Program-made: the position numbers and the translations under genes
Assembly: GCA_036625875.1 (NCBI GenBank)
Contig: JAZKSW010000001.1
Span: forward strand, 1 to 44,957
Direction: 5' to 3'
DNA from: Minisyncoccota bacterium
GTDB lineage: Bacteria > Patescibacteriota > Minisyncoccia > Minisyncoccales > JAZKSW01
DNA: 44,957 nt
Shown: in pieces, positions 38,585 to 44,957 of the stretch
Numbering within the stretch: the first letter of the stretch is position 1
How the letters are laid out: every line of letters begins with the position of its first letter
Notes under the pieces: model-generated
Database searches by the model: none
Told to the model about the DNA's origin: nothing
What the model saw: the letters and a program-made list of their open reading frames with translations, nothing else

Positions 38585-38778
38585 GGTTTAATAATTTAAT
38601 TAAAGCATTAAAACCTTTATCTTGTTTTATTATACTCTCCTACTCCAAAGCCTTCAACCAAAGCAAAAGTGGGGTCGGAGGGGACTTTTGCTGAATGTTT
38701 CACATGAAACAATAAAACCCAAGAGTGCTCTACTCTCGGGTGGCGTACTCCGTTTACCGTACGACGTTCGAACTGCAG
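38585..38778 (-). repeat. Terminator-promoter module, copy A (3' box, terminator, two extra hairpins, promoter, conserved leader)
   Basis: 3' box 38741-38778 starts 1 nt after the ALDH stop. Hairpin cccgagagt/actcttggg at 38718-38740 plus a U tract. -35 TTGAAG at 38652-38657 and -10 TATAAT at 38629-38634 (17-nt spacer). Confidence 0.85.
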
Positions 38779-40086
38779 TTAGCCGGAGTCTTCTTCTGGA
38801 ACGCTACTAATTTGCTTAGTATTAGTATAGGCTCTAGTACCGTACTTTCCCAAAGAAACTCCTACTCCACTACCTTTCCTTCCTACCCAAGCTCCACTAA
38901 AGAAAGGAAGATTAGCATTGTTTTGCCAAACCATTCCCACTTCTAATCTTTTTGCTATTTTCATAAACTTATCTTCGTCCCGAGTCCATACAGAAGCACC
39001 AAGTCCATAGCGAGTATTATTAGAAATCTTAATAGCTTCTTCTAAACCCCCAAATGGACGAATTGCTAGAATAGGACCAAAAGTTTCTTCTTTCCAGATA
39101 GACAAATTGCTATCATTACACTCAACTATAGTGGGGGCTAAAATTAACTTTTCCTTATTTAAAACCTCTCCTCCCGTAATTATTTTACATCCTTTATCTA
39201 CGGCTTCTTGAAGTTGTTTTTTTACAATCTCGAATTGAGATTTAACAGCAAAAGAAACAGGAGATAGCGCTTCTACCTCTTCGGATAAGTTATCAACAAA
39301 ATCTTCATAAATACTCTCCTTTATTAACACTCTTTCTATTCCGGTACAAGCTTGGCCATTATTCATAAAACCGTGAAATGTAACTCCCTCTATTGTTTCG
39401 TCCATATTACAATCATCTAAGACTATAGCTACATCTTTGCCTCCCATTTCAAGTACATACTTCTTTCCTTCTCTAGCACATCTTTCGGCTATTTCCTTCC
39501 CCGCTTCCATAGAACCAGTGAAGGAAATCATATCTACCTCCGAACGAACGAGTTTTTTGCCTACTTCATCGCCTCCGGAAGCAACTTGCAACAACCCCTC
39601 AGGAGCTTCCACCTTACTGAAGACTTTTTCAATCCACCGTCCAGACTCAGGAGTAACTGGAGAGGGTTTCAAGATAACAGCATTACCTGCCATGATGGCT
39701 GGAGCAATGCAACTCCATACAGGTAAATCAAAAGGGAAATTCCAAGGTTTTATTGCCCCCACTACGCCTACGGGCTCGAAATGAAGTCTTGTCCTTCTGT
39801 CTGAATATTCTTCCGATTCATGTTTTACTTTTTCTGGTGCTAAATACTCAGGGGCTTTTTCAGCAAAAAAATCAAGTGCTTGCTGGGTAAATTGACAGTC
39901 AAATAATGCTTCTTCGCTGGTCTTGTTCATCTCCTCAGAGATGGTTTTTGCTATTTCATCCTTATAGTCTCCCACCAAATTGCTTCCCTTCCTTAGCAAT
40001 TTAGACCTTTCTTCAAAAGAGGTTCGGCTCCAGTCTTTTTGGCAAGCTCTTGCTTTTTCTATTTTTTTATCAATAGAATCTTTCAT
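38779..40086 (-). CDS. NAD(P)-dependent aldehyde dehydrogenase family protein
   Basis: LEMGGKD (catalytic Glu), NGQACTGIERV (catalytic Cys), 435 aa. Confidence 0.85.
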   Translation of the reverse strand: MKDSIDKKIEKARACQKDWSRTSFEERSKLLRKGSNLVGDYKDEIAKTISEEMNKTSEEALFDCQFTQQALDFFAEKAPEYLAPEKVKHESEEYSDRRTRLHFEPVGVVGAIKPWNFPFDLPVWSCIAPAIMAGNAVILKPSPVTPESGRWIEKVFSKVEAPEGLLQVASGGDEVGKKLVRSEVDMISFTGSMEAGKEIAERCAREGKKYVLEMGGKDVAIVLDDCNMDETIEGVTFHGFMNNGQACTGIERVLIKESIYEDFVDNLSEEVEALSPVSFAVKSQFEIVKKQLQEAVDKGCKIITGGEVLNKEKLILAPTIVECNDSNLSIWKEETFGPILAIRPFGGLEEAIKISNNTRYGLGASVWTRDEDKFMKIAKRLEVGMVWQNNANLPFFSGAWVGRKGSGVGVSLGKYGTRAYTNTKQISSVPEEDSG

Positions 40087-40165
40087 TACGTTATTTATTC
40101 TAACAAAAAACTGCCCTCTTTTCGAGAACGGGGTTGTCTGGTTCTACCATTATGAAATAATTTTA
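40087..40165 (-). repeat. Second intergenic module family, copy 1: weak terminator + TAGAAT -10 placed 10 nt from the ATG
   Basis: The 32 nt at 40097-40128 (attctaacaaaaaactgccctcttttcgagaa) match 41466-41497 at 31/32. Hairpin gttctc/gagggc (40113-40129), then U6, then GTTAGAAT. Confidence 0.7.
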
Positions 40166-40262
40166 ACTTTCTAATTTAGCTCTGACCTTTCCAGCGACCT
40201 GCCTTATCCATTTTTCACGACGATTTATCTTCTTTGACAACATTAGCAGAATAAATCTTCTC

Positions 40263-41037
40263 TTAAGGTTTCTCAGTTGGAATATATTCAAAATAATACT
40301 TAATAAGCTCAGGGACTTGATAAAATTGAGGAGGAGATTGAGTTGTGTCCTTTGCTCCAAACTCAATGGAGAGATTCCAATCTTTTTCTGGGAAGGCATC
40401 TTGCTTATGAAGTTTACCTATATGATCACCCTTTTTTACCTTGACTCCAAAAACTCTTAACTCTTTATTGCGAACTATACCTTCTCCTTCTTCCTCAAGT
40501 TTCTCTTTAAGAGAAGGAAGTATTTTAGCGTTATGAAAAGTTAATTTCACCACCTCTTCCTTTTTTATAGGTAATCTCGTGATCTTAATCGTTTTTATAG
40601 TCCAATTTTTCTCTACGGGAGAAGCCTCACCGAAGGTTACTACTACATCAAAAGTAGAATAGATTAAGGCAACCCTCGGGAAGATTGAAATCCACCGCAG
40701 CAAGTTCACCTTTAAGTTTAGAGGGTAACTCAGGATGTTCCTCGGGCCAATAATTAGGTTCTCCCTCATCGCAGAATTTTTCTTCTAGAATTACACATGA
40801 ACTCAGCCCTTCCCCGCCATTTTCAACCGGCTTGGAAGAAGTAGAAGTGGTTGCCGAATCTCCCGGAGTAGGCAACTTTGTACTAGGTTAAAAAAATAAA
40901 AAAATAGTAGCTTGAGATTCGGTGGTAGTAGCTTGGGGAGATCCCCCTTCATAAAAAAGAAAACCCTCAGAGTAAAGCCAGACCCCTACCGTTGCCAGAA
41001 TTAAAATGATTGCCAAGATTAATAATTTTTTGTTCAT
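40263..41037 (-). pseudogene. Disrupted secreted-protein gene (in-frame TAA at 40888-40890 plus a frameshift between about 40648 and 40769)
   Basis: ATG at 41037 overlaps the TGA of the upstream gene (ATGA) and opens with a signal-anchor peptide, MNKKLLILAIILILATVGVW. The same frame continues into ORF 40648..40875 after a single TAA that follows a T-rich run. ORF 40263..40769 continues in another frame. Confidence 0.5.
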
Positions 41038-41456
41038 AATTCTGTTATTAATTCTTTAACACGCCTCTTTATTTCATCTCTTACCTTCCTAGTAAACTCC
41101 AAAGATTTACCTTTTGGGTCTTTAATGGTCCATCTCGTAACCTTTGGATTATCGACTAAATAATCTGGAACTGGGTCTTCATCATCCATAATAAGAATTA
41201 CCTTATCTACATTACTGACGATTTCTCTATTAATTTCCTTGGATTTATTCTGGGAAATATCTATTCCCTCTTCCTTCGTAACAGTTATTAAATTATCGAC
41301 GATTGAACCAAATTCTCCGATGGTTTGCTCACCTCTGCTAAGTTTAGTACCTGCAGAGAGGGCTTTAAAGTTCTCACCGGCTTGCTTATTAAAAATCTCT
41401 TTCGCTATTTGACTTCTTGCAACGTTTCCCCGACAAATAAATAATATTTTCTTCAT
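41034..41456 (-). CDS. Low-molecular-weight phosphotyrosine phosphatase / ArsC-like (LMW-PTP fold)
   Basis: CX5R(S) P-loop ILFICRGNVARSQ, 140 aa. Confidence 0.8.
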   Translation of the reverse strand: MKKILFICRGNVARSQIAKEIFNKQAGENFKALSAGTKLSRGEQTIGEFGSIVDNLITVTKEEGIDISQNKSKEINREIVSNVDKVILIMDDEDPVPDYLVDNPKVTRWTIKDPKGKSLEFTRKVRDEIKRRVKELITEL

Positions 41457-43844: not shown

Positions 43845-43923
43845 AATTTAGATTAGTTTAAGCCTCTTGTTTTATTATACTCTCTTGCTACAAAACCCTC
43901 AGGCGGAGCTTAAGTTTAAAGGC
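43845..43923 (-). repeat. Terminator-promoter module, copy D (promoter half only)
   Basis: GCAAGAGAGTATAATAAAACAAG matches the -10 block of copies A-C and E (-10 at 43874-43879). No 3' box or terminator. Confidence 0.6.
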
Positions 43924-44409
43924 TTAAGGATTAACTTTTGTTTCCTTTGCTTCTTCCAGTTTCTTCTGGTAAATATCATTACCGGGGGCTAATTCCAGAG
44001 CTTTTTTATAGCTTTTTATTGCTTGGTCTTTAGCAACTGATTTTACCATTTGTGAATCTTTTTTTAAATTAAAGCTCATTACTTTAAAATAAATGTTACC
44101 TTGCCGATACCAAAGTTCTGGATTATCAGGGTCCAGTTTGGTTGCCTTATTCGCAAGAGATGTTGCTTTCTTCAACTTGGAAAGTGACTCTCTATCTTTC
44201 TCTTCTATGCTCTCTAATTCACTAAATTTAGATTCTGCTCTATTCATATAATTTTGAGCCCCCTTACCCCCAAATAATTGAAGGGGGTTTAGAGAAACTT
44301 GTCCTTTAACAGTGAATTGCCAAAAAGAAATTCCTCCAATAACAAGAGAGGTGATTACTAATACAATAAGAAGAGTAATTGGAGTTGATAAACCTTTATT
44401 TGAATGCAT
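43924..44409 (-). CDS. Anchored TPR-like repeat protein with MHSNKGLSTP... N-terminal module
   Basis: 161 aa. WYRQGNIYFKV...AIKSYKKALELAPGN is TPR-like. Confidence 0.65.
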   Translation of the reverse strand: MHSNKGLSTPITLLIVLVITSLVIGGISFWQFTVKGQVSLNPLQLFGGKGAQNYMNRAESKFSELESIEEKDRESLSKLKKATSLANKATKLDPDNPELWYRQGNIYFKVMSFNLKKDSQMVKSVAKDQAIKSYKKALELAPGNDIYQKKLEEAKETKVNP

Positions 44410-44445
44410 TTTAGTATATATTAACGAATGATTATTAATAAATAA

Positions 44446-44877
44446 TTATAAAACAACCACATAAAGAACAAATAATAAAGGAGCTAACAAGCAAGCAATA
44501 ATTACCCATAGCATTATATCCTCTGATGAAGTTGTTTCGCCGTGCTTTCTTAAAAAACGCATAGTGGTTATGCCTTCGACTAAAGAAGTAATTATAAGTA
44601 AAATAATAACTTGAGCGGCTGCCATAGCCTGTCCAAATCCCCCCATGCCAATAAACATCCCACTGTAATTTGGCTCTACCGATAGAACACTAGTAACTAA
44701 AGCAATTCCTATACCTATATTTACTAAAAGTAATCCTCCGTATCCAGCAAGCAATGAAGAGGACGGATCCTCTTTTTGTGTAGACTTAAGTATTCCCCGA
44801 TGTAAATATATTGTAAAAGGAATCGAAGCTAATAAAATAAAGAAACTAATAACTAAGGCCCAAATTAAAATATCCAT
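44446..44877 (-). CDS. Hypothetical 4-TM membrane protein
   Basis: 143-aa hydrophobic ORF, the first gene after module E. Confidence 0.6.
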   Translation of the reverse strand: MDILIWALVISFFILLASIPFTIYLHRGILKSTQKEDPSSSLLAGYGGLLLVNIGIGIALVTSVLSVEPNYSGMFIGMGGFGQAMAAAQVIILLIITSLVEGITTMRFLRKHGETTSSEDIMLWVIIACLLAPLLFVLYVVVL

Positions 44878-44957
44878 AATTTAAATAATATTGCTTACTA
44901 TTACTTTATTATACTCTCCTGTGATAACTCTTCAACCAATCTGAAAACCCGAGAGTG
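44878..44957 (-). repeat. Terminator-promoter module, copy E (cut by the window end)
   Basis: -10 TATAAT at 44908-44913, -35 TTGAAG at 44930-44935, and the 3' arm of the terminator hairpin plus U tract (forward cccgagagtg) at 44948-44957. Confidence 0.8.

Follow-up and report, generated by a model that had tools for sequence, protein, structure and literature searches.

Repeated elements in the window

An array of unrelated genes in a Minisyncoccota bacterium is punctuated by repeated intergenic sequences, which raises the question whether these repeats form a single element and what such an element does. The window, i.e. the whole stretch of DNA analysed (44,957 nucleotides), is the entire contig; copy E at its end is therefore cut by an assembly break within the repeat. 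All five copies (A–E) of the original prediction were found where they had been placed, on the minus strand. The repeats are real and far exceed chance: the box sequence AGTTCGAACGTCGTACGGTAAA occurs on the minus strand without mismatch at 38753-38774 (A) and 43501-43522 (B) and with 3 mismatches at 42470-42491 (C), and no match was obtained across 100 shuffled versions of the window. A 6.4-kb segment contains copies A, B and C as well as the truncated E, the remaining 38.5 kb being devoid of further box elements. The genes between the copies had been considered non-homologous, and Pfam finds no relationship among them; their description as small surface-protein genes holds only in part, as ALDH, SGNH hydrolase and LMW phosphatase are enzymes.

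The conserved box

The core part, (G)CAGTTCGAACGTCGTACGGTAAACGGAGC(A), is a box of 31 nt composed of a left arm of ~25 nt and the invariant core GGAGC. Its copies in the window are:

38746..38776, minus strand: box of copy A, GCAGTTCGAACGTCGTACGGTAAACGGAGTA, 2 nt past the ALDH stop codon (nhmmer E = 1.7e-11)
43494..43524, minus strand: box of copy B, 50 nt past the stop codon of a Cys-rich 90-aa gene
42470..42493, minus strand: box of copy C, 5' part, GCAGTTCGAACATCGTCTGGTAAA, 1 nt past the stop codon of a 294-aa gene
42433..42441, minus strand: box of copy C, 3' part, CGGAGCATG

With GCAG counted as box start, the predicted distance of 1 nt from the upstream stop codon applies to C and not to A (2 nt); the box of copy B does not adjoin its upstream gene. 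Among the 10 boxes known from the window and other genomes, 4 start 1-12 nt past a stop codon, and all 10 reside on the transcribed strand upstream of a hairpin and T-run. The distance to this intrinsic terminator is 6-10 nt in 7 of the 10, inserts of 44-68 nt intervening in the other 3. The left arm of copy A (first 25 nt) agrees at 25/25 positions with element 1 (el1) of locus L001 and with L002 and L003, and blastn yielded exact matches of 29-30 nt. Copy C deviates at 3 positions; at two of them (position 12, G to A; position 17, A to C) it has the base of the L001 variant boxes. Between GGTAAA and CGGAG it is interrupted by an inserted 28-nt perfect hairpin (stem 42443-42464). The box contains no palindrome and, on direct reading of the sequence, no convincing dyad symmetry as in the core sites of tyrosine recombinases.

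Terminator hairpins

Most box-linked terminators belong to one hairpin family (X), CCYRAGAG...CTCTYRGG followed by a T-run; an unrelated hairpin (Y) follows the box in L002. The following copies were identified in the window:

38713..38741, minus strand: hairpin X of copy A, CCCGAGAGT-agagc-ACTCTTGGG, one G.U pair, then T-run
43461..43489, minus strand: hairpin X of copy B, plus T-run
42310..42367, minus strand: hairpin X of copy C, loop enlarged by a 29-nt insert (42331-42359), z = -5.1
41515..41565, minus strand: degenerate half-copy of hairpin X (X part 41542-41563) after the SGNH hydrolase gene, no box
40094..40137, minus strand: module Y, hairpin CCGTTCTCgaaaaGAGGGCAG, T-run and extended -10 TGTTAGAAT, upstream of the ALDH gene, no box
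41463..41506, minus strand: second copy of module Y, upstream of the LMW phosphatase gene, 86 % (repeat family D8)

The predicted hairpin CCCGAGAGTagagcACTCTYGGG was recovered at 38718-38740 and 43466-43488. Copies A and B represent the top two terminator-like sites of the region, where 16 such sites were found versus 5.5 expected. At hairpin X of copy B, a 32-nt stretch is identical to L003. The arms of copy C (42360-42367 and 42315-42323) are as in A and B, an additional hairpin insert with a 14-bp stem being located upstream (42396-42427). The degenerate half-copy carries the sequence that follows X in copy A (repeat families D3, D9). The functional strand is the minus strand: wherever the stem proper (outer eight pairs) of a box-linked hairpin departs from Watson-Crick pairing, the pair is G.U, and the opposite strand would have A-C there.

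Promoter, leader and partial copies

Downstream of the terminators, a promoter module (P), GGTTGAAG-N16/17-TATAAT, and in two copies a leader (L) were detected:

38629..38657, minus strand: promoter P of copy A, TTGAAG-17-TATAAT, conserved spacer end AGGAGAG
43426..43453, minus strand: promoter P of copy B, TTGAAA-16-TACAAT
42251..42278, minus strand: promoter P of copy C, TTGAAG-16-TATAAT
43865..43915, minus strand: copy D, AAGAGAGTATAATAAAACAAG, -10 half of the promoter module alone, 78 % (repeat family D1)
44878..44957, minus strand: copy E, 3' arm of X, T-run, promoter P (44908-44935) and leader, cut by the contig end
38570..38622, minus strand: leader L and first five codons of copy A, common only to copy B
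43365..43419, minus strand: leader L and first codons of copy B (repeat family D6)
38662..38711, minus strand: insert between terminator and promoter, unique to copy A

As predicted, the promoter core AGGAGAGTATAATAAA occurs five times, on the minus strand only and nowhere else in the window; four of the five cores are the top sigma-70-type matches (10/12 positions). Promoters and terminators are observed as consensus matches. Copy D lacks box and -35 element, and copy E (84 % to B, repeat family D5) retains only the 3' arm of hairpin X. The proposed conservation of the A and B leaders amounts to 90 % identity over 48 nt and reaches codon 5; in copy B, leader and AUG together fold into an AT-rich hairpin. 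The insert of copy A comprises a parS-like palindrome (38696-38711) and a hairpin with a 9-bp stem (38662-38693).

A composite of independent parts

Box, terminator, promoter and leader had been regarded as a single element. These pieces recur separately from one another, so the presumed module is made up of independent parts. Box and terminator alone recur from genome to genome. Promoter P is common only to close relatives (L003, partly L006), where it stands after other terminators; promoter and A/B leader are separate lineage-specific modules, the leader representing a local A/B duplication.

Such free combination would also be expected if the modules were lineage-specific intergenic mosaic repeats of the BIME/REP, Neisseria NIME/Correia or pneumococcal BOX kind, with terminator, promoter and spacer pieces spreading via duplication, gene conversion and transformation and the box being selfish or neutral. 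The box is joined to X or Y, X also occurs without box (L006; window 41542-41563), promoter P stands behind a different terminator in L003, two Y copies of the window are boxless, and individual copies are decorated by unique hairpin insertions. This explanation is nevertheless improbable: copies are very few (a single exact one in the entire L001 representative genome, one in 21 kb of L015), neither terminal inverted repeats nor target-site duplications were seen on direct reading of the A/B element ends, the box is non-palindromic, and its 31 nt are near-perfect despite an 8-point difference in G+C, which is unexpected for a neutral repeat.

Occurrence in other genomes

The box was also detected in L001/L013, L002, L003 and L004, and box-terminator recurs in at least 3 other tiny-genome Patescibacteria/CPR genomes; further copies are thus not lacking outside the window. 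Box identity amounts to 97-100 % between genomes (29-37 % G+C) in which 8-45 kb contain nothing else that can be aligned. Exact matches of 28-31 nt stem from four independent assemblies (NCBI, JGI, ENA, Logan) with a different gene context in each. Among 185,579 species-representative genomes, the exact box was present in 1.

A second array, in L001/L013, has its four elements packed into 2.5 kb, the other 19 kb being free of them. Located between the housekeeping genes lplA and glgA, it brackets three toxin-antitoxin-like cassettes (MNT-HepT, NYN, DUF6036) with four elements, including copies that are divergent yet clearly homologous (E = 7e-10 to 2e-7). L004 has a single element, placed between ndk and an AbiEii-AbiEi pair, as do its strain copies (L015-17, L019). 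Overall, the elements are observed to cluster in accessory islands and are absent from the core operons examined. The cargo is of typical accessory character: nucleotidyltransferases and RNases of toxin-antitoxin type, orphan proteins, membrane proteins and an ALDH with a truncated N-terminus.

An array arising by segmental duplication in one genome, with outside matches due to chance or contamination, would account for the long right-hand block common to A and B (box, hairpin, promoter, leader, first codons). It is very hard to reconcile with exact matches in independent assemblies and different gene contexts, with the divergent homologues in L001 and with the unrelated genes between the copies; local duplication alone is effectively refuted by the copies in other genomes, including the L001 array.

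Homology between loci ends at the box edges. Copies A, B and C have the box in common and not the sequence preceding it. Conversely, the suggested comparison of related loci revealed that the near-identical L002 and L003 (98.5 % through upstream gene and box) are unrelated directly past GGAGC, where different genes follow. In L001, the left arm of el1 agrees with the canonical type at 25/25 positions and with el2/el3 at only 16-18/25, while its right part matches el3 at 34/36 positions and the window copies at only 26/38. By sequence, el1 is a chimeric element that switches type at AAAC|GGAGC.

Proposed role as cassette junction

Among the three hypotheses offered originally, a portable expression/recombination module fits best, but not with the whole block as the portable unit. 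We propose, at a probability of roughly 40 %, that box-terminator serves insulated gene cassettes as junction and crossover element. The transferable unit separating accessory cassettes in Patescibacteria chromosomes may tentatively be delimited as the 31-nt box, a short linker and the intrinsic terminator hairpin with T-run. We infer recombination itself and its enzyme: cassettes would be exchanged with a crossover at or beside GGAGC, so that the left arm would move along with the upstream gene, while linker, terminator, promoter and downstream gene would move as one unit, with which the next cassette begins. An insertion at a resident single-copy site would produce N cassettes and N+1 elements, each cassette presumably being insulated by the junction terminator and driven by its own promoter. 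Recombination could be site-specific, with a recombinase encoded elsewhere, or homology-anchored after DNA uptake from relatives.

Counted in favour, from an evidence base of about five genomes, are cross-genome conservation, two independent arrays and a single L004-type element, together with box-edge breakpoints, chimera, accessory cargo, compactness and a contig end inside a repeat. Counted against are the lack of dyad symmetry in the box and the absence of recombinases near the elements: no recombinase, integrase or transposase was detected in the 45-kb window, in L013 (10 kb either side) or in L015. Neither a circular or excised form nor an empty site was observed. The A/B promoter-leader duplication requires recombination events besides a box crossover, and gene conversion at any conserved patch can also yield chimeras and shared breakpoints.

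Two further objections concern RNA. The 28-nt split in copy C would probably kill a protein-recognised DNA site but could be tolerated by an RNA loop, and the invariable sense orientation before a terminator is equally explained by RNA function. The box could thus be a conserved, largely single-stranded 3'-UTR RNA element, possibly with a 4-bp stem closing a loop of ~19 nt, and function either as a small RNA (stand-alone or derived from a 3'UTR) or as a platform to which an RNase or RNA-binding protein attaches; in that case its island-boundary position would be secondary, the box being the sole conserved patch open to homologous exchange. This agrees with the use of X as well as unrelated Y hairpins and with the restriction to G.U pairs. 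Helix 4-7/27-30 is paired in 10/10 boxes (shifted registers ≤72 %), pair 5-29 being U.G, U-A or C-G, and copy C accepts self-contained hairpin inserts exactly where an RNA loop or linker would. In L004, a candidate promoter (TTGTTA-16-TACAAT) after ndk's own terminator predicts a transcript of ~95 nt. However, helix changes are one-sided only, with no pair changed on both sides, the helix counts are no better than those of shuffled columns, and alifold gives a folding energy of only -1.6 kcal/mol; the modelled structure thus argues weakly for a small RNA or regulator platform. The best duplex of the box with sense transcripts of the window (-27 kcal/mol) is within the shuffled range (-27 to -35), no RNA target being found there. 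No conserved promoter precedes the box, the elements are limited to accessory islands, and occurrence of the exact box in a single representative genome is odd for an ancient housekeeping RNA. An RNA function appears less likely than not, but it is the main rival of the cassette junction, the preferred reading.

Comparison with known systems

The original statement that no described element class combines these parts agrees with the lack of matches in Rfam, phage/plasmid records and a literature string search; likewise, the box had no match in phage, plasmid and viral collections, and no attC, dif, MITE or REP features were found in the element.

BIME/REP, NIME/Correia and BOX families consist of palindromic units or possess terminal inverted repeats and reach tens to hundreds of copies per genome. 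Like the present elements, they are short modular intergenic blocks, often at 3' ends. Two reports describe intergenic mosaic repeats as able to act as terminators, promoters, mRNA stabilisers and recombination substrates (PMC3184786, PMC1797815). In contrast, the present elements number 1-4 copies, have a non-palindromic core and are island-confined.

A conserved single-stranded stretch directly before an intrinsic terminator, on unrelated mRNAs or stand-alone, is likewise a feature of 3'UTR-derived sibling small RNAs. Those of the CpxQ or OppZ type in enterobacteria and vibrios usually have seeds of 7-12 nt, whereas the box has 31 nt.

In Mycoplasma vsa/vsp/vpma loci, too, surface-protein genes that are unrelated or variable stand in arrays and share a stereotyped promoter, leader and N-terminal region (as copies A and B do here), and a recombination box of about 20-35 bp is present. 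There, DNA is inverted between inverted 5'-region boxes (vrs/vis) and a dedicated recombinase gene adjoins, whereas the present boxes, placed in the 3' region, form direct repeats and have no recombinase nearby.

Xer-dependent dif/pdif modules and IMEX share a short (~30 bp), strongly conserved, usually single-copy site that is duplicated around inserted accessory modules, the recombinase acting in trans. Unlike these sites, the box lacks two inverted 11-bp arms flanking a 6-8-bp spacer; neither GC skew nor gene orientation switches at the box site, in contrast to dif, and the elements are direct repeats, whereas pdif sites alternate in orientation. The parS-like sites nearby suggest an origin-proximal rather than a terminus region.

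Integron arrays (attC; Vibrio VCR superintegrons; CALINs) differ in several respects: the present elements possess neither R''/R' inverse core sites nor a bulged imperfect palindrome across the element, sequence is conserved instead of structure, the hairpin, with its T-run, is a canonical terminator, and no IntI was found. Integron cassettes are mostly promoterless and read from Pc (PMC11014356); each of those described here has its own promoter and is insulated transcriptionally. The likeness lies in co-oriented small unrelated accessory genes including toxin-antitoxin pairs, in a recurring junction element that starts a few nt past the upstream stop codon, in N cassettes with N+1 sites and a hybrid junction derived mostly from the upstream cassette, and in locations that can be far from any integrase gene (CALINs being arrays without integrase). 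The elements hence look like junctions of a gene-cassette system of a hitherto undescribed kind, an analogue of the integron array rather than a member of it.

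Repeats of the window array

The original prediction of repeats on the minus strand of 38585-44957 (copies A to E) was reproduced, positions included. They comprise a 31-nt conserved sequence (the box: a left arm of ~25 nt plus GGAGC) upstream of a terminator, both together being termed the element, as well as a promoter module (P) and a leader. The 22-mer AGTTCGAACGTCGTACGGTAAA occurs exactly at 38753-38774 (A) and 43501-43522 (B) and with 3 changes at 42470-42491 (C), and did not occur in any of 100 shuffled sequences. Downstream of the box, A and B carry hairpin X (CCCGAGAGT-agagc-ACTCTYGGG), the loop of which is enlarged in C by a 29-nt insert and of which only the 3' arm is left in E. 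Since the window is the complete 44,957-nt contig, copy E is cut by the assembly break within the repeat. The region contains 16 terminator-like sites (5.5 expected), among which A and B rank best.

Five copies of the promoter core AGGAGAGTATAATAAA were detected in the window, exclusively on the minus strand and confined to the array, and four of them are the region's top sigma-70-type matches. Scanning for -35 and -10 hexamers spaced 16-18 nt upstream of a gene, module P of A, B, C and E and of the metagenomic locus L003 scored 10/12 on the consensus level, again as top matches of their regions. Terminators and promoters are, throughout, predictions at consensus level. Identity between A and B (90 %) is maintained through the leader up to codon 5. 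Their leaders (38582-38622 and 43377-43419) possess no Shine-Dalgarno sequence near the AUG; they fold into an AT-rich hairpin including the start codon, with AAGG ~35 nt upstream. They may represent a split ribosome-binding site, the two parts of which are joined by the hairpin, or else an element controlling translation. The genes between the copies (ALDH, SGNH hydrolase, LMW phosphatase, DUF2628-like, Cys-rich, TPR and membrane/orphan proteins) are unrelated according to Pfam, as proposed; their collective designation as surface-protein genes does not hold, as not all of them encode surface proteins.

Occurrence of the box in other genomes

Among 185,579 species-representative genomes (GTDB), the exact box pattern matched once, in a MAG labelled Ca. 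Saccharibacteria (L001). Exact-pattern scanning of JGI metagenome contigs revealed at least the loci L002, L003 and L004; these counts are lower bounds, as L016 (Ga0102934_1000047), from a strain of the L004 organism, harbours an exact box at 13930-13967 that was not returned. A box nhmmer profile additionally detected three divergent copies in L001, each with the same hairpin family and T-run; their consensus aatatcCCAGTTCTAACATCGTCCAGGCAGAGGAGCAGAGAAG differs from the canonical, i.e. window-type, box at 9/31 positions. The L004 organism has an RpoD that groups with a protein from Minisyncoccales, relatives of one L003 protein are named Ca. Paceibacterota, and L003 shares with the window an identical hairpin X and 91 % of promoter P, which together with the L001 label assigns all box-carrying organisms to the Patescibacteria (CPR). 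The G+C content of the loci is 29-39 %. Beyond the 28-31-nt box nothing is alignable with the window except in L003, and each box outside the window precedes a hairpin plus T-run:

L003: hairpin X after a 44-nt insert
L001: CCCGAGA...TCTTGGG
L004: ATCCAAGAGT...ACTCTTGGAT
L002: hairpin type Y

The box was absent from viral contigs (three patterns), phage records and plasmid records, leaving a mobile-element origin unsupported, and no description of such an element was found in the literature on CPR.

Terminator hairpins and sense strand

Intrinsic terminators, i.e. G+C-rich stem-loops that on the transcribed strand run directly into a series of Ts, were predicted by scan in A, B, L003, L004 and three of the four L001 elements (el1, el3 and el4), with shuffles yielding 0-5 sites; hairpins and T-runs of C, el2 and L002 were read directly from the sequence. 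All hairpins other than Y form one family, in which 2 stem pairs are changed on both sides and 8 G.U cells occur, supporting the stem of the predicted terminator. Apart from the two innermost (loop-proximal) positions, no pair of the box-linked stems would turn into a wobble on the opposite strand, and this pattern supports the view that the functional strand is the minus (sense) strand.

Composite organization

The repeats had been regarded as a single module. All-versus-all intergenic comparison and pattern scans did not bear this out: box, hairpin X, terminator Y, promoter P and the leader (in A and B only) recur independently. Terminator Y constitutes a second module that contains no box and in which the hairpin CTGTCYTCgaaraGAGGGCAG is directly followed by the extended -10 motif TGTTAGAAT:

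40094-40137: module Y
41463-41506: module Y

Its leader measures only ~15 nt, and the Y hairpin type also follows the box in L002. Unique hairpin insertions number three in copy C and one in copy A, which also contains a parS-like palindrome. Those of C are self-complementary and recur neither elsewhere in the window nor in the fetched loci:

42443-42464: 8-bp G+C-rich stem
42396-42427: 14-bp stem
42331-42359: insert in the terminator loop

In a relative (L006, 61 % protein identity), 274-314 consists of a degenerate hairpin X without box, followed by TTTTTGAATTGGTTGAAG; from this arrangement, terminator and -35 box are joined by a junction (ATTGGTTGAAG) that these genomes conserve as one unit. 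Decayed boxes were sought by local alignment in copy D, ahead of the Y terminators, behind the MNT gene of L003 and in the gaps nearby, and no alignment was better than those with shuffles. It is considered improbable that these pieces belong to a family of mosaic repeats lacking any dedicated function.

Comparison with known element classes

An attC architecture (imperfect palindrome, R'' RYYYAAC and R' GTTRRRY core sites, extrahelical bases) was not found. The GTTC(G)AAC of the box could pair with GGTTGAAG after the hairpin in the window copies only; L001-L004 possess no GTTRRR-type partner after the terminator, this place being taken by TTGACA/TTGACT -35 boxes in L002 and L004 and by extended -10 motifs in L001 and L003. 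The 25 nt from box start to hairpin have no complementary partner. An integron array would be headed by an attI site with an IntI tyrosine recombinase; genes for a recombinase were detected neither in the window, the array of which runs off the contig end, nor in L013 (a longer L001 locus) or L015 (a strain of the L004 organism). In a dif/Xer site, two partly inverted ~11-bp arms flank a 6-8-bp spacer at the replication terminus, where strand bias switches; by direct reading, the arms of the best partition match at 4/11 positions. In the window, L013 and L015, the genes on either side of the site share one strand with no strand-bias switch, and the window shows a monotonic GC skew throughout.

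Regarding MITE/IS elements, the ends of the block shared by A and B (AGTTCGAAC... and ...ATTTAAAYAAA) are not inverted repeats, the flanks show no duplication and no inverted-repeat pair spans the element. The high-copy palindromic organization of REP/BIME sequences was not observed, as there is one exact match in the whole L001 genome and no copy in the examined sequence outside the islands, and the box did not fold. Rfam 15 covariance models yielded no match in the window or L001-L004 by gathering score or E-value and no sub-threshold match over the box, and ARAGORN detected no tRNA or tmRNA.

Several further candidates were weighed against the anatomy of the element and do not fit: HUH/IS200-type ends, oriT-like geometry, a Ter site, an ECF/sigma-54 promoter on either strand and a RAT/ANTAR-type antiterminator. 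A DNA-uptake sequence is excluded by copy number (GTTCGAAC, 4 per 45 kb). A coding relic (AGT TCG AAC GTC GTA CGG TAA, SSNVVR-stop) was rejected even though 2/4 substitutions are synonymous: the frame relative to the upstream gene is +1 in A and 0 in C, a stop lies two codons upstream in B, and conservation continues past TAA. Presumably, CGGUAAACGG resembles a 23S stretch and GUCGUA..GGUAA the 16S 3' end; this short and gapped likeness was taken as chance.

Arrays, islands and cargo

L001/L013 contains 4 elements (el1-el4; 1 canonical, 3 divergent) within 2.5 kb, located between lplA and glgA around three cassettes:

L001 cassette: MNT-HepT
L001 cassette: NYN
L001 cassette: 59-aa protein and DUF6036

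In L004, a single element is flanked by ndk, a gene with a terminator of its own, and by an AbiEii-AbiEi pair, and in L003 the element is located upstream of a solitary MNT gene. Further copies were found neither in the other 19 kb of L013 and the other 38.5 kb of the window nor in the 21 kb around the single L004/L015 element and ~50 kb of L005-L012. This absence, together with the island gene neighbours, indicates that the elements are confined to accessory islands. Their cargo is largely toxin-antitoxin/defence-like in the other genomes and comprises orphan proteins, membrane proteins and odd enzymes in the window. The island genes of L001 have a G+C content of 28-30 %, slightly below that of the flanking lplA and glgA (34 %); cassette G+C gave no signal within the window.

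The window ALDH (38779-40086) comprises 435 aa, versus ~486 aa in its closest homologues (65-67 % identity), and lacks an N-terminal region of ~55 aa. The extra segment of the homologues is Gly-zipper/TM, and the ALDH gene starts directly after the Y terminator/promoter module, as if its 5' end had been replaced. With respect to synteny, the 294-aa gene is an orphan, and the best ALDH relatives are 65-67 % identical, the three fetched contigs being non-syntenic and without elements. Contigs with relatives of the L003 SurA-like gene end before the box. All strains of the L004 organism carry an identical single element. Two arrangements were observed in L015-L024, which share an identical RpoD: rpoD, a 95-aa gene, NUDIX/HD, ndk, element and AbiE, or rpoD directly followed by greA, a large strain-level rearrangement beginning just after rpoD.

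One gene on the minus strand (40263-41037) is seemingly split into three overlapping frames:

40888-41037, minus strand: 49-aa signal/TM start
40648-40875, minus strand: 75 aa
40263-40769, minus strand: 168 aa

T7-T8 homopolymer runs occur near 40890-40905; the gene may be a pseudogene, or it may encode a secreted protein that is phase-variable by strand slippage. Furthermore, TGTTTCACGTGAAACA at 36800-36815 agrees at every position with the canonical 16-bp palindrome of parS/ParB binding; a one-mismatch parS-like copy, TGTTTCACATGAAACA, is located at 38696-38711 inside module A between terminator and promoter, and a degenerate third copy at 41521-41540. These parS-like sites suggest that the array is origin-proximal.

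Breakpoints and possible function of the element

L002 and L003 are 98.5 % identical from the membrane-protein gene upstream of the box, over a spacer of 38 nt, to the box itself, and are unrelated directly after GGAGC, where both terminator and gene differ. Upstream of the box, nothing is common to the window copies and the foreign copies. Within L001, positions 1-25 of el1 match the canonical box at 25/25 positions but el2/el3 at only 16-18/25, whereas its right part (GGAGC to hairpin) matches el3 at 34/36 and window copies at only 26/38 positions; by this comparison, el1 is a chimera. GGA (positions 26-28) is unchanged in 10/10 copies.

The reading favoured here, at a probability of about 0.4, is that box and terminator together form the junctions within arrays of gene cassettes, which would be exchanged at GGAGC or next to it. 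The left arm would begin close to the preceding gene (in A, C, el2 and el4, its 5' end is 1-12 nt away from the stop codon) and would travel with the upstream gene, and linker, terminator, promoter and gene would form the start of the next cassette. Such cassettes would account for the N+1 pattern of L001 and the single "empty" site of L004, for the L001 array having a canonical left arm at its head and variant arms inside, for the L002/L003 alleles and the confinement to islands, as well as for the sparse distribution with near-perfect identity and the assembly break. Recombination is what we infer from comparative anatomy alone. Much of the same pattern could also be produced by homologous exchange wherever a functional patch is conserved; for this reason, the probability of the cassette reading is held to the above value.

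Alternatively, the primary function of the box could lie at the RNA level, which is considered somewhat unlikely. A 4-bp helix of positions 4-7 with 27-30 is paired in 10/10 copies (shifted registers, <=72 %), with pair 5-29 occurring as U.G, U-A or C-G, and L004 contains a candidate promoter for a small RNA; however, changes in the helix are one-sided, and their counts are not above those of column shuffles. The perfect 28-nt hairpin that splits the box of copy C would be contained in the loop closed by this helix. Alifold of the box recovered the 4-bp helix only, single-sequence folding of A was no better than that of shuffles (z = -1.5), the signal in B stemmed from the terminator only, and RNAduplex of the box versus both strands of the window revealed no target better than those of shuffled boxes. 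Overall, the RNA evidence for the box is weak but not nil. Other explanations share the remaining probability.

Implications and relation to integrons

Patescibacteria are epibionts with tiny, streamlined genomes. To our knowledge, few mobile elements are recognised in them, and little is understood of how their defence and surface genes are gained and reshuffled. If the box is a recombination site, it would mark exchange at a junction that is conserved across otherwise dissimilar genomes and has an architecture unlike that of attC, dif, MITE or REP sequences, and it would point to a new route of gene flux in a large part of the bacterial tree; its sequence would also make variable islands easy to locate in metagenome bins. 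If the box acts as RNA, it would be among the first group-specific, conserved non-coding regulatory motifs of Patescibacteria. There is a substantial chance that the element represents a new mechanism.

More specifically, and with considerable doubt, the elements may belong to an undescribed cassette system of Patescibacteria, integron-like in its working and of other build, in which transcriptionally insulated units (linker, terminator, own promoter, gene or genes and 25-nt arm) would be exchanged at the invariant GGAGC, swapping defence, toxin-antitoxin and surface-protein genes. Exchange would require a recombinase with its gene located elsewhere, or else a mechanism that is RNA-guided or uses single strands. 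If true, minimal genomes would possess a dedicated means to swap these genes. Integron arrays are alike in outline; the present elements differ from them in lacking attC features and in that their cassettes would be insulated and self-promoted.
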